The notes beneath the pieces were generated by a model. That model was not told where the DNA came from and made no database searches. It saw only the letters and a list, made by a program, of their open reading frames with translations. The position numbers were made by a program, and so were the translations under genes. This document shows, piece by piece, positions 57,445-61,108 of a stretch of 64,000 nt of DNA (its first letter is position 1; each line of letters opens with the position of its first letter). The DNA lies in contig CAVPSB010000025.1 of the NCBI GenBank assembly GCA_963708025.1, positions 352,001-416,000 of the forward strand. The letters run 5' to 3'. Source of the DNA: an uncultured Candidatus Rokubacteria bacterium. GTDB lineage: Bacteria > Methylomirabilota > Methylomirabilia > Rokubacteriales > DASRDR01.

Positions 57445-57625
57445 CGCGCAATTGGCCGTGGGCCGCCCTCATGCGGCGCGCGGAGCCCGCCACATCACTG
57501 GCAGGAGGTGCAGTATGACGGGTCGTCCTTCGCGCTCGACGTGCTGGCGTGCCCCCGCTGCGGGGGGCGGATGCGCGTGATCGCGACCGTCGCGGACCCA
57601 ACCGCGATCGGCCAGATCCTGGGGG
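57445..57625 (+). mobile_element. C-terminal remnant of an IS91-like (Y2/HUH) transposase, interrupted by a ~46-bp insert
   Basis: RNWPWAALMRRA | FALDVLACPRCGGRMRVIATVADPTAIGQILG, the Zn-knuckle tail typical of IS91/ISCR-like transposases. Confidence 0.75.
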
Positions 57626-57910
57626 CCCGGCCGCCCGGCACGCCTCGCGGGCCTGGCCCGCCCGCCCCGGCCGTCGGCTGAGCGTCCGACACGGCCCGCG
57701 CCGGCCGGGAACCCTCGACCGGAGGTGGGCCGCCGCCCGGCCCGGCGACCGGCGGCTCGCCCTGCTTGCCCCCCCTGTGCCGCGCCCGCGTCGCTCCTGA
57801 CCGAGCCTCAGACCGCCCGGACCATTCCTGGCCGGATCCCGCGCGGCTCTCGCGCTTGACACCAGCCGCCCGTCTTCCCACCATTGCCCCGGGAAGGGGG
57901 TCATCCGCCA

Positions 57911-58020
57911 GCCGCCCTGGGGGCTATGACCCCGCCCTGGGCTATGATCCCTATGACCGAGAACGGTCATAATGTCGCCTACCCCCCTCATTATGTCGCC
58001 TACCCCCTCGCCTACCCCCA
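57911..58020 (+). repeat. Stuttered junction motif containing a dif-like site (57953-57980)
   Basis: CCGCCCTGG..CTATGA x2, ATGACCGAGAA-CGGTCA-TAATGTCGCCT, CATwATGTCGCCTACCCCC x2, TCGCCTACCCCC x3. Confidence 0.75.
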
Positions 58021-58178
58021 GCCGGCGGGAGCCCCCGCAAGGCGTCGAACAGGCCGGTGCGGTGGCCCACCGAGATCATGAGACAGGCGGCGCCGAGGTT
58101 CAGCGTGTCCAGGAGCCGTCCGGCGAACGCTTCCGCCTTCGCTGCGTCAAAGCCCGTGCGTTCTTCCGAAGGTGGCAT
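58021..58178 (-). pseudogene. 5' fragment of an Rv2258c-like methyltransferase
   Basis: [44 protein letters not shown] aligns with the N-terminus of 54914..55987; similarity stops at the junction motif. Confidence 0.85.
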
Positions 58179-58296
58179 TGAAAGTCTCCCGATCTTTCCG
58201 GTGCGTCCTATTCCGTGGGGCTGGATTCCCCGAGCATCACTCGATTCCGGAGGCCACGCAAGGCGGTAACGTCAAGGCCAGGCCTCACGGTCAACG

Positions 58297-58725
58297 GGTA
58301 ACGGGCCAGGTGCCACAGCCTCTCGGTCACTGAGGTGCCAGCGCCTCTCGGTCACTATGATGCTGGGGTAACCCCCCCGGGGAGTGGAGGCGATGGCTAA
58401 GAAGCTCGGCGAAGGGAAGCGAAGCGATACGCGATGGTGGCGGAGGTCAGGGCCGGGGCGTCGATGCGCGCAGTGGCCCGAGCCCATGCGGTGAGCCTCT
58501 CCACCGTGCAGTGGTGGGCTCGACGGGCCGGGGATCTGGCCCTGGATCGGGTCGATTGGAGCGATCGGCCGCCTCTCGCCGAGCGGATCCATCGGACTGA
58601 CTCGGCGGTCGAGGACCTCGTCCTCACCCTGCGACGCGAGCTGAAGGACACGAGCGATCTGGGCGAGTACGGAGCCCGGGCCATCCACCGCGAGCTCGTG
58701 GCTCGCGACCACGTTCGGATGCCGT
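58297..58725 (+). mobile_element. Truncated DDE (IS481-like) element: left end plus transposase N-terminus
   Basis: Two 24-bp repeats AGGTGCCAnnGCCTCTCGGTCACT (58308-58331, 58333-58356); ATG 58393, frameshifted HTH ORF ASMRAVARAHAVSLSTVQWW..DWSDRP..YGARAIH; no catalytic domain. Confidence 0.7.
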
Positions 58726-58911
58726 CGACAGGGGTTCGACCTCCAGCTCACGCGGCACGGGACGGAAGGCTGGCGCGCGACGTTCTACCCGTAGGGGCGG
58801 ATCCACTCGGCGACCCAGGCGGTCGGGACGGCCTGGACGCGGTCGCCCTGGGCGGCGGTGCAGCGAGCGGCGTGGGAGGCGTTGCGGATTCGGGAAGGCG
58901 ACGCGGTATAG
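58726..58911 (+). pseudogene. 3' fragment of a small hypothetical protein with an internal stop
   Basis: RQGFDLQLTRHGTEGWRATFYP*GRIHSATQAVGTAWTRSPWAAVQRAAWEALR; resembles a multicopy Rokubacteria hypothetical family (recollection, unverified). Confidence 0.55.
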
Positions 58912-59082
58912 CAGCGGCCCGGTGCCGTTCTGATCGCCTGGACGGAATCTTTCCGGGCTGGCGCACCTCAGAGGACACCGGCCCCCTTGTGGAACGCCCA
59001 GTTAGCGCGGGCGCGTCTCTTGCTCCATCCAACCCGGGGGCGAAGGGGAGCATACCGTCGAGGTGCGTGCGGGAGGGCGGAG

Positions 59083-59469
59083 ATGAGCGGGGTGATGGAG
59101 AGTTTTGATCGGGTTCGTCACAGGGGGCTGGCGCAGGGATTCTATCGGACCCTGCTCGGCGCCGACCCGCGAATCAAGGTCATGTTTGAAAACACGAATT
59201 TCGAGCGGCAGAGAGATCTCTTCCTGCACGGCCTTCTGGTGCTGATCGAGTATGCCAACGGACAGGTGTTGGGAGAAGTGGCAATCGAGCGTCTCGGCGA
59301 GCTTCACAGTCGAAGGAAAATGAATGTGCCGCCCGATCTCTATCCGATCTGGGTGAACTGCCTCGTCGAGACGTTGGCCAGACTCGATCCGCAATTCTCT
59401 CCCACGCTCGACCGGCAATGGCGTGAGACCCTACAAAAAGGGATCGACATCATGACCCGGGTATACTAG
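59083..59469 (+). CDS. Single-domain globin
   Basis: FY..LL..DP.IK.MF (B10 Tyr, CD1 Phe), FERQ (E7 Gln), LGELH (F8 His), VPPDLYPIW, H-helix W. Confidence 0.88.
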   Translation: MSGVMESFDRVRHRGLAQGFYRTLLGADPRIKVMFENTNFERQRDLFLHGLLVLIEYANGQVLGEVAIERLGELHSRRKMNVPPDLYPIWVNCLVETLARLDPQFSPTLDRQWRETLQKGIDIMTRVY

Positions 59470-59684
59470 CGAGCCGGTTTGGCCTCCACCATCGGATGGC
59501 CAAGAATCGTACTGCTTTCCGGTGGCTAGCCAACACAATACCCCTTCTGCTGCAGACGTCGTGGCAGGATCCGGAGCGCCGCGCGGTCACGGTCGCCGTG
59601 CTACGGGCGCTGCAGCCAGAGTGAGGGTGTGCCCCAGTCTCGAAGTGCACCCACGGACGCCTTACGGCTGCGGGTGTCAACACG

Positions 59685-60024
59685 ATGAGAACATCGTCCG
59701 CGCTTCTCCCGAAATTCTACCTCGGTTACGGCGCCTTGAAGGAAAAGCTTCGCGCGCCAGGCTTCGAGGTCTTCGCTGGCGGAATGCCCTCCGCCGAGAT
59801 TGTCGAGCGTTTCGAGAAGCCAATCAAGCGTGTGCGACGGACGAATCAGCCGAGGAGCGGCGGGAGCGAGAGCGCGGGAACGGGCCGAGGCCGCTGCTCA
59901 GGAGTGGCTCAAGGACGAGGAGCGGGCGGCCGAGCAGGCCAAGAGCGACGCCGAGCGGGATGCGGAGAAGGCGGAGGCGAGGCTCAACGCGGCGGAGAAA
60001 GCGATGAGAGCTATGCGGGAATGA
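59685..60024 (+). pseudogene. Degraded ORF with a coiled-coil C-terminus
   Basis: Protein-like sequence split across frames, ending RERAEAAAQEWLKDEERAAEQAKSDAERDAEKAEARL..*. Confidence 0.4.
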
Positions 60025-60061
60025 CCCGGCCCGGTGGGTGGCTTTCCCGGGGCCGAACTGA

Positions 60062-60148
60062 GCCTGCCCCCGCGCCCCCGAGCCGTCGATCCTGTATCGC
60101 ACGGTCCAGGCCCACCTCGAAGGATTCCTCGCCCAGACGGCGGGGGAA
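60062..60148 (+). mobile_element. N-terminal remnant of an IS91-like transposase
   Basis: [27 protein letters not shown] matches the PR.PE..LY..V..HLE.FLA start of these transposases. Confidence 0.65.
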
Positions 60149-60150
60149 GC

Positions 60151-60443
60151 TTCACGGTCGATGACCGCATGCGCGTGGAAGTCAACGCGAGCACCACCCG
60201 CGAGCACGTCGCACCCTACGAGCTGGTGAAGACCATGCGGGCGTCGATTCTCGTGCTCGGCCCGCTGCTCGCACGCTTCGGCAAGGCGGACGTCTCGTTG
60301 CCGGGCGGCTGCGCGATCGGTGCGCGGCCCGTCGACCTCCACGTGGCGGGCCTGCAGGCGATGGGTGCCGAGATTCACATCGAGAACGGCTACATTCGTG
60401 CGCGCGCCCCGCGCGCCTGGTGCTCGAGACCGTCACCGTGACC
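60151..60443 (+). pseudogene. murA: Internal fragment of MurA (UDP-GlcNAc enolpyruvyl transferase)
   Basis: [53 protein letters not shown] / [11 protein letters not shown]; both ends are missing. Confidence 0.92.
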
Positions 60444-60492
60444 CCGCCCTGGGGGCTATGGCTATGACCGAGAACGGGCATTATGTTGGCTA
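60441..60492 (+). repeat. Second copy of the junction motif with a dif-like site (60464-60491)
   Basis: ACCCCGCCCTGGGGGCTATGGCT-ATGACCGAGAA-CGGGCA-TTATGTTGGCT-A. Confidence 0.8.
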
Positions 60493-60493
60493 G

Positions 60494-61108
60494 CCGCACG
60501 TGCTCCTGCTAGACGAGCCGCTCGGAGCGCTGGACAAGAACCTGCGCGCGCAGATGCAGGTCGAGCTCAAGCGCATCCACCGCGAGGTCGGCATCACGAT
60601 GGTGTACGTGACGCACGACCAAACCGGGGCGATGACGATGTCCGACCGCATCGCGGTCTTCAGCCGCGGTACGCTCGAGCAGACAGCGCCGCCGCTCGAG
60701 GTGTATCACCGCCCGCGCACCCGATTCGTGGGCGAGTTCATCGGCGACAGCACCTTCTTCACCGGTCGCGTCAACTCTGCCGCGCCGGGGCGCGTCGAGC
60801 TCGACGGCCTCGGGCCGATCGAGGCGGATGCCGGTGCTTGCCGGCACCTCGCGGGCGCGCCGGCCGACGTGCTCCTGCGCCCCGAGCGTCTTCAGTTGAT
60901 CCGCGACGGCGCGACGCTTCCGAACCGCCTGGCGGTCAAGATTGGCGTGATCGTAAACTACGGCGACAGCGTACTCGTCATCGGCGACGCCCGAGGTCAA
61001 AGCGTACGCATCCGTATCGCGGGCGCGCAGCCCGACGCGGTCCGCGAGGGCGCGACGGTCACCGTGGGCTGGAAGGCGGGTGACGAGCATCTGATCGCGC
61101 GGTCGTGA
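60494..61108 (+). pseudogene. 3' half of a PotA-like ABC ATPase
   Basis: Begins at PHVLLLDEPLGALD (Walker B); VTHDQ and TOBE domain present; Walker A and the signature motif are absent. Confidence 0.88.

Follow-up and report, generated by a model that had tools for sequence, protein, structure and literature searches.

How do pieces of unrelated genes come to lie directly against one another in a bacterial chromosome? The question is raised by a patch of about 3.85 kb (positions 57265–61108) in a 64,000-nt stretch of an uncultured Candidatus Rokubacteria genome (C25:352001–416000; hereafter the window), where two copies of a short motif stand at junctions between gene pieces. A first-pass annotation, made from the letters alone, took the motif for a dif-like site and the patch for a hotspot at which Xer-type recombination and/or rolling-circle HUH transposition repeatedly fixes arbitrary DNA. 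Comparison with the rest of the genome and with its relatives identified the junction motif, with high confidence, as the conserved 3′ oriIS-type end of a rolling-circle insertion sequence (IS) of the ISCR/IS91 family. We read the locus as a fossil cluster in which ISCR-like elements inserted, underwent rolling-circle transposition of an abortive or one-ended kind and were cut down by deletion, and put the probability of this reading at roughly 70%.

The assembly measures 8.17 Mb in 49 contigs, which are designated by C-numbers. L-numbers (L022, L023 and so on) denote extracted loci, and X1, X3, and X6 are public sequencing runs.

Identity of the Junction Motif

The two motifs noticed initially have a 24-mer in common (two matches in the window versus none in 100 shuffles). 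A whole-genome search for this 24-mer with up to four mismatches returned the two window copies only, and the motif would have passed as unique to the window, which was misleading. As the fuzzy search missed diverged end copies, a profile search was needed; the end profile has 41 columns and was built from nine copies. It matched the genome 23 times at E ≤ 1 and 17 times at E < 0.01, the latter on nine contigs and including five of the profile's own seeds.

The motif occupies a constant position relative to a transposase gene. At C19:48855 and C23:161980 it lies about 270–300 nt past the transposase stop, as it does in the window (ten tails aligned). Relatives were sought in a species-representative genome collection, using the genome's longest transposase fragment, located on C31, as the query; 344 candidate stretches were found, 170 of them encoded relatives and 80 loci were kept. 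A 23-mer of the motif with up to five mismatches matched five of the 80 loci, in four of which it lay 1,694–1,755 nt past the match start, on the gene's strand. Four intact relatives from other genomes (L022, L023, L050, and L078) carry the motif 1,684–1,757 nt past the transposase start, again on the same strand. The end profile gave 14 matches in 12 of the 80 loci at E ≤ 1, and remoter relatives end in a variant, GAGAACGGnC.TT..GTTAAC, at a similar distance.

Similarity between copies stops at the motif. One other genome holds two copies that are 83% identical (L022 4076–5750 and L023 4064–5742); the identity they share begins just inside the 5′ end of the gene and ends at the motif, past which the sequences are unrelated. 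A related copy in run X3 no longer matches the window past 57986. The motif comprises an imperfect subterminal palindrome, CATGnCCG-AGAA-CGGnCATT, followed by ATGTTGaCTAsCC. Palindrome pairs at four positions are kept in 21–25 of 27 copies, and motif 1 contains an 8-bp hairpin. IS91-family oriIS ends are described in PMC13181058 as having imperfect subterminal palindromes, with one-ended transposition at 1–14%; agreement of the palindrome with this description counts in favour of an oriIS-type identity. The bases that follow the ends vary, with no constant tetranucleotide, the last base of the element is fixed to about 3 nt, and direct repeats were not noted in the flanks. The sequence CCCCGTATCGnTCCGTGAAC, a candidate for the left end, precedes the gene by about 190 nt in C31 and L022, the sole clear cases, and is seen weakly in L023 and L101; it is absent from the window.

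The transposase itself points to the same family. Intact relatives (L022, L023, and L050) are proteins of about 500 amino acids (aa) with Zn_Tnp_IS91 and Y2_Tnp domains, an HFH (HUH) motif and an RY..RP motif, and they align to positions 8–492 of the 509-position ISCR_clade_Ia model (NF052416) with 357–386 bits. Since these scores are far under the model's curated cut-off of 925 bits, we regard the elements as a related but separate clade rather than as members of clade Ia. The best fragment in the genome under study reached 180.7 bits. Both transposase fragments in the window match the intact relatives (E 4e-21 and 2e-8). The involvement of a rolling-circle HUH element suggested at the outset was therefore correct as to identity: the motif is an oriIS-type ISCR/IS91 end, and gene pieces adjoin it.

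The other part of that suggestion, that the motifs are dif-like or pdif-like sites whose modules are exchanged by Xer-type tyrosine recombinases, is now extremely improbable, and "dif-like" was a name given to the motif, not something observed. The motif core holds ATTATGTT, which may resemble part of a XerD arm. Two pairs of copies are inverted around 1.0–1.3 kb (59521/60495 and C13:341496/342808), and on C18 a tyrosine recombinase gene has a copy about 100 nt upstream of it, an arrangement that would suit such sites. However, 27 aligned copies revealed neither a second arm nor the 11-6-11 dyad of a 28-nt dif site, and the hairpin that precedes the ATTATGT core is their sole symmetry. The motif has a fixed place and orientation downstream of the ISCR transposase gene in intact elements, and 17 copies on nine contigs contrast with a single-copy chromosomal dif, although the terminus is not placeable in 49 contigs. 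The C18 recombinase scores far below the cut-offs of Xer models, and none of its eight other paralogous matches has the motif within about 650 nt. Cumulative GC skew climbs steadily through the whole window with no turn.

An integron was considered and rejected, as the C18 recombinase matches only the generic Phage_integrase model and, weakly, Xer models, and its paralogues lack the motif. The closest full-length paralogue of this recombinase aligns only from residue 87. The 110 nt between the C18 motif and the recombinase gene recur at C31:19563–19674, in an ISCR-rich part of C31.

Composition of the Mosaic

The mosaic of abutting gene pieces was confirmed: 12 pieces lie directly against each other in 57265–61108, and the globin gene alone is whole. 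The patch is a scrapyard around three ISCR/IS91-type ends, an IS481-like stub and pieces of six ordinary genes. Profile matches agree with the names first given to the 5′ piece of a methyltransferase gene, the left end of a DDE element (here IS481-like), the intact globin gene, the internal murA piece and the 3′ half of potA.

The first piece is the remnant of an ISCR/IS91-like copy on the plus strand (57265–57986). It consists of the C-terminal 100–125 or so codons of the transposase gene, frameshifted, an untranslated 3′ part of about 300 nt and the oriIS-type end that we call end 1 (junction motif 1; plus strand, core 57947–57986, palindrome 57952–57971), with which 720 bp of the element are retained. 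Residues 405–499 of an intact relative's transposase align to 57376–57675 (49.5% identity, E 4e-21), so that the IS91-like transposase tail recognised initially is genuine; the NF052416 match covers 57523–57624. Frame reading places the start of the tail at about 57265–57272, some 15 nt past the stop of an intact O-methyltransferase gene, rather than at 57445, where the mosaic was first thought to begin. Aligned with other tails, the tail of copy 1 shows a 46-nt insert at 57481–57527, and related contigs lack those 46 nt.

End 1 is separated from the next gene piece by two extra nested copies of the element's last 12–19 nt (TCATTATGTCGCCTACCCCC and TCGCCTACCCCC; 57987–58020, plus strand, direct repeat family D1). 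The three nested terminal copies at 57966–58020 may have arisen by slippage or by re-initiation at the nick region. The piece that follows, on the minus strand at 58017–58178, is the first 54 or so codons of a gene for an Rv2258c-type (HTH_65) S-adenosylmethionine (SAM) methyltransferase (positions 2–26 of the 75 in Pfam HTH_65). The Pfam match runs over 57954–58178 on the minus strand, and homology to methyltransferases stops at about 58017–58020, so that the outer edge of end 1 cuts off the gene, whose upstream region extends to about 58270.

End 2 (junction motif 2; 60439–60495, plus strand) is a 57-nt stub of an oriIS-type end (nhmmer E 2e-8; this copy was a profile seed). On its inner side lies an internal piece of murA (60161–60438, plus strand), the gene for UDP-N-acetylglucosamine 1-carboxyvinyltransferase, matching positions 63–146 of the 417 in Pfam EPSP_synthase and running to about 60438, the inner edge of end 2. 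It is preceded by 93 nt from the interior of an ISCR-like transposase gene (60068–60160, plus strand, about codons 26–56; tblastn E 2e-8 with residues 26–56 aligned), 88% identical at the nucleotide (nt) level to C31:8560–8639. This piece had been named a transposase head; it is indeed ISCR transposase sequence, with murA following at 60160/60161, but it is an internal fragment, and the element's true left end is missing there. On the outer side of end 2, homology to potA begins at 60492–60496, in the Walker B region and exactly at the edge of the end. This last piece (60494–61108, plus strand) contains the 3′ 204 codons of a gene for a potA-type polyamine ABC ATPase, with a Pfam TOBE_2 match and the ABC domain cut. 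Three fragments do end at a motif, as had been seen, with the qualification that the methyltransferase and potA pieces stop at an outer edge and murA at the inner edge of end 2.

A third motif adds to the two counted before. It is an inverted 28-nt stub of an oriIS-type end at 59521–59548 (minus strand, nhmmer E 0.0073), 88% complementary to 60471–60495 (inverted repeat I1). We considered this stub as the left terminal repeat of an element spanning 59521–60495 and rejected the idea: no inverted copy was found upstream in intact relatives when both strands were scanned, and their left ends look different from the stub.

The remaining pieces all lie on the plus strand. The left end and first 98 or so codons of an IS481-like DDE transposase gene (58271–58725; positions 10–95 of the 284 in the NCBIfam model transpos_IS481) include two 25-nt direct repeats at 58308–58357 (repeat family D8). 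The piece at 58726–58906 is, as first noted, the 3′ part of a hypothetical gene; the piece is real, and the correction is that it lies on the plus strand with an in-frame stop. It belongs to a small multi-copy gene (...DLQLTRYG..GWRATFYP...) and matches C38:45016–45165, C29:66394–66556 and other places by blastn and six-frame comparison. Next comes the intact gene for a single-domain globin (59083–59469; Pfam Globin, E 7e-6). Between the inverted stub and the internal transposase fragment, the open reading frame (ORF) list gives a small ORF with a coiled-coil-like tail and an apparent frameshift near 59830 (59685–60024). It had no Pfam match over 59800–60021 and no similar DNA elsewhere in the genome.

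Origin of the Gene Pieces

By its database affinities, the murA piece comes from the gene pool of another phylum and is of gammaproteobacterial type, with 80–87% identity to gammaproteobacterial MurA. It is 75–87% identical to the best 120 database proteins listed, and all nine of these with an organism name are from Proteobacteria, mostly Steroidobacteraceae. The host's own murA, on C32, shares only 64% aa and 71% nt identity with it. The proposed comparison with the host copy pointed to a proteobacterial affinity.

The potA piece is 77–88% identical to full-length PotA proteins (358–381 aa), two of them named Rokuibacteriota. It has no close counterpart in the genome (best 52.6%) and no orthologue at E ≤ 1e-60 in 20 family relatives. 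The globin gene has a G+C content of 56.6%, compared with 71.8% for the window. Given the proteobacterial affinity of murA, the lack of a close counterpart for potA and the low G+C content of the globin gene, several of the pieces are imports. The methyltransferase piece has no second copy in the genome, but an intact paralogue lies in the window, at 54917–56269. The only paralogue of the globin gene (34% identical) is at C31:32464–32838, in the ISCR-rich part of C31.

Decay of the Transposase Family and Other End Copies

The clade is common in Rokubacteria-like and other soil genomes, and relatives of the mobile-element genes come mostly from metagenome-assembled genomes (MAGs) labelled Rokubacteria or Methylomirabilota. 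The ISCR model detected 15 transposase fragments in this genome. None is whole, and nine are tails starting at model positions 398–455. As no transposase of the clade is intact in the genome, nothing is active here now. Pairwise comparison showed that most end copies share only their last 27–155 nt, similarity stopping at the outer boundary; these are solo ends with variable inner limits, mostly stubs of 30–155 nt. One ISCR-like transposase gene, at C31:8533–18050, survives in four collinear fragments (model positions 19–203, 187–344, 341–406, and 398–486) split by two insertions; a large serine-recombinase-like ORF is carried by one of them, and an IS4/IS110-type region by the second.

The surroundings of the 16 end copies outside the window (E < 0.1) were assessed by scanning the stop-to-stop frames around them, in sets of 135 and 134, against Pfam. 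About eight of the 16 sit between genes with complete-looking domains (C2:239664, C16:202350, C25:292460, C31:52561, C25:136673, and three on C13). Three had no Pfam information nearby, and two directly follow their own transposase tails. The suggested genome-wide search for copies with intact flanks was therefore answered half each way, and the motif is no general mark of breakpoints, as about half of the other copies lie between apparently intact genes.

Truncated ordinary genes were found on the inner side of two ends: adh_short positions 1–38 of 195 at C16:412794, and DctM positions 241–413 of 413 at C31:29288. The latter piece duplicates the host's own gene at C25:219942–220860 with 93% nt identity. 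More widely, C31:27343–29201 is a partial duplicate (86–93% nt) of C25:219942–222235, comprising the 3′ part of the DctQM genes and the downstream gene, and is cut off at the solo ISCR end.

Several arrangements around other copies were seen in passing. The end at C18:59577 lies in a second mosaic. The surrounding locus L015 (C18:48000–62000) contains three copies, 96–98% identical, of the tail and 3′ part of a second ISCR-like subfamily (at 4305–4740, 7513–7719, and 10943–11378 of L015). They bracket sets of intact genes, including an acyl-CoA synthetase gene and a 53% identical paralogue of the window's HTH_65 methyltransferase gene; a primase-like ORF, a PIN/DUF433-like pair and recombinase fragments lie near them. 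On C13, two full solo ends (341496 and 342808; 4797 and 6109 of L103, which is C13:336700–344300) stand inverted 1.3 kb apart and enclose a GDSL-lipase gene, a geometry like that of the window's inverted pair at 59521/60495. A third C13 end lies 3.3 kb off, just after a PMT_2 glycosyltransferase gene. An IS110-family element (DEDD_Tnp_IS110 and Transposase_20) directly follows the ISCR end at both C31:20329 and C31:29288 (87.6% identical), and the same element follows an ISCR end in another MAG (L022 5727–7325, 88%). This suggests either site-specific targeting of the ISCR end or joint travel of the two.

History of the Locus

How could such ends have come to bound gene pieces? ISCR-like elements would insert with no target duplication, and an interrupted gene would then break off right where an end has its outer edge. 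On the outer sides of ends 1 and 2, the methyltransferase and potA pieces, respectively, halt at the boundary. The target genes of the ISCR-like copies would have been a methyltransferase gene and a potA-type gene. Deletions would have followed insertion, because the genome lacks the other halves of both genes. Plain deletions, together with rolling-circle transposition that was abortive or one-ended and started from the surviving ends, with the transposase supplied in trans, may then have taken out the bulk of each element along with the remaining half of its target gene, and brought in foreign pieces. We infer this order of events, and likewise a part for rolling-circle transduction, beyond deletion alone, in joining the pieces.

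The murA piece lies on the inner side of the 57-nt end, the side that one-ended transposition mobilises. The IS91 model as set out in PMC13181058 has transposition begin at oriIS and run the length of the element; if it is not terminated, it carries on into the DNA past the other end. With a truncated element, this would mobilise whatever adjoins the inner side. Such a one-ended model fits the positions of the murA, adh_short, and DctM pieces, the variable inner limits of the end copies and the transposase fragments that are tails only.

An alternative account is plain decay, which we consider unlikely. It holds that unrelated elements and acquired genes gathered in a dispensable spot and were trimmed by deletion, illegitimate recombination and merges with the DNA of relatives, the ISCR ends being bystanders. 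In its favour, every transposase is broken and the other halves of the cut genes are gone; the neighbourhood has no synteny to family relatives beyond single genes, the IS481-like stub and the hypothetical-gene piece are joined with no ISCR end between them, and the DctM piece on C31 was copied from a host gene and has diverged from it. Against it, three pieces in the window end exactly at an ISCR end, and two further ends in the genome have truncated genes on their inner side. A murA piece from another phylum, set between an ISCR fragment and an ISCR end, is also explained more easily by joint travel, and the many solo ends, which vary in their inner limits, resemble the products of abortive events in which the initiation end was retained.

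Several results nevertheless weigh against a fossil cluster formed in part by rolling-circle transposition. The halves that the methyltransferase and potA genes lack were found nowhere in the genome, so that deletions must be assumed, and these by themselves might account for the whole locus. The chimera of ISCR fragment, murA piece and end is single-copy in the genome. A DNA search with 60040–60520 among 250 other genomes of the phylum, five of them unpublished and none of these five the sole basis of a claim, found matches in 183, which among the matches listed were internal to murA only (70–81% nt) and did not include the chimera. Exact-word scans of a metagenome contig collection for the two murA junctions returned zero and zero matches, a kind of scan that diverged copies would escape. 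No empty site was found via orthologues of the radical-SAM, O-methyltransferase, and potA genes in close relatives. About half of the other end copies, as described above, sit between genes with complete-looking domains, and not all inner-side pieces are foreign, as the DctM piece copies a host gene. The ends are also followed by no constant tetranucleotide, unlike those of IS91, IS801, and IS1294, whose targets are CTTG/GTTC.

These results also bear on the idea of a hotspot that repeatedly fixes arbitrary DNA, which they do not bear out: no transposase in the genome is intact, about eight of the 16 other ends lie between apparently intact genes and the murA chimera was found nowhere else in the searches above. 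A bolder extension of the fossil-cluster reading is that solo oriIS ends act as portable initiation sites, which, with a transposase in trans, serially transduce stretches on their inner side, even across phyla. We hold this to be quite doubtful.

Junction Support and Assembly

Could the mosaic be a product of assembly, in which reads of different organisms were joined at shared IS repeats during reconstruction of a MAG? The genome has a contamination score of 8.18%, the murA piece has the affinity of another phylum, and in every public run at most 10% of the words sampled from the stretch were present. A chimera is nevertheless highly unlikely, because the pieces are not joined at repeats; the short ends are the only repeats. 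The mosaic lies between ordinary genes in a contig of 482 kb, and the junctions between ISCR fragment and murA and between murA and end would need to exist in some genome anyway.

Contigs from other samples provided part of the spanning support that had been asked of the junctions. In four public runs, with short contigs only, identical or nearly identical contigs cover 57200–57304, 57275–57471, 57646–57904, 58641–58791, and 58745–58939. Two junctions are bridged: that between the O-methyltransferase gene and the ISCR tail (X1 records 1–2 and X3 record 17), and that between the IS481-like stub and the hypothetical-gene piece (X6 record 25, a contig identical over 58641–58791). The ends' own junctions lack such bridges: those at 57986/58020, 60160, 60438, and 60495, among others, had no independent support among the matches listed, a further point against the fossil-cluster reading. 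ABC-gene contigs of other organisms diverge before 60492–60500.

Genomic Setting

The genes to the left of the mosaic, at 38–57 kb, are ordinary ones: an ABC ATPase, a GAF histidine kinase, a trpD-type transferase, ornithine cyclodeaminase, a phosphonate-binding protein, an M4 peptidase and two intact methyltransferases. A B12-binding radical-SAM gene and an MFS transporter gene lie to its right. As ordinary genes flank both sides, the mosaic is a small chromosomal patch and not part of a large island. An Rfam scan of 55000–64000 gave no matches at E ≤ 0.1, and a tRNA search of 40000–64000 found none.

This part of the chromosome seems, on comparison of window 40000–64000 with L014, L121, L122, and L123, to be a gene-by-gene patchwork. 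Orthologues of the O-methyltransferase gene (73–84%) occur in nine of 20 family relatives, and at the three loci examined, no other gene was in common. The radical-SAM gene has 78% identical orthologues in two of 30 relatives, with different neighbours. A single open frame at 52536–54137 encodes the catalytic and C-terminal domains of Peptidase_M4 followed by an Emfourin domain, an inhibitor of M4 proteases.

Relation to Known Systems and Implications

The closest known counterparts are ISCR1, ISCR2, and ISCR8. Toleman and colleagues reportedly reviewed the ISCR elements in 2006. ISCR elements are described in PMC13393415 and PMC9376610 as IS91 relatives with terIS and oriIS ends, whose rolling-circle movement of adjacent genes is, in these accounts, supposed and experimentally unproven. 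The window's elements are like them in having an HUH transposase with Zn_Tnp_IS91 and Y2_Tnp domains and a near-full ISCR_clade_Ia alignment, in having two distinct ends, with oriIS a few hundred nt downstream of the gene, in truncated copies that retain the oriIS end and in unrelated genes beside the ends (PMC13393415, PMC9376610). They differ in forming a separate clade from an uncultured soil lineage, with no resistance genes and every copy in the genome dead, and in that short gene pieces adjoin the ends, as opposed to the whole cargo genes of ISCR. IS91, IS801, and IS1294 likewise have an imperfect subterminal palindrome at the initiation end, and the intact relatives of our element showed no inverted terminal repeats; one-ended transposition as described in PMC13181058, acting on the transposase-gene side of oriIS, fits the positions of the murA, adh_short, and DctM pieces. 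The elements here differ in that no conserved target tetranucleotide was found beside the ends, and their one-ended mode is putative. Their transposase of about 500 aa also departs from IS91, whose 356-position model matches the first half only.

Helitrons share with this locus a rolling-circle mode, a hairpin near the 3′ end and the uptake of host gene pieces (PMC4778049), much as the first-pass annotation had proposed. They are eukaryotic RepHel elements whose captured pieces are amplified in many copies, whereas the bacterial chimera here is single-copy. As in pdif and dif systems, short recurring sites bound small modules, sometimes as inverted pairs. Here, however, no Xer-type dyad is present, there is no dependence on an Xer gene and the site is part of an IS end.

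Identifying the sites as IS ends rather than Xer sites clears away a false lead, and the locus is no active capture machine. The identification defines the 3′ end of an ISCR-like clade in Rokubacteria-type and other soil genomes, a clade that we do not claim to be undescribed, and shows one genome with 17 mostly solo ends and no living transposase of the clade. The end profile may also aid annotation, as it recognises stubs and avoids the calling of chimeric ORFs that run through them.

The gene-shuffling mode of ISCR elements has long been proposed and, to our knowledge, never shown experimentally. If the inner-side pieces were carried by one-ended transposition, they would be natural, resistance-free evidence for it. 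Were solo ends portable as well, bacterial gene-fragment mosaics would be built much as Helitrons build them in eukaryotes. The murA piece and the abundance of solo ends provide a modest lead to natural one-ended transduction of gene fragments.

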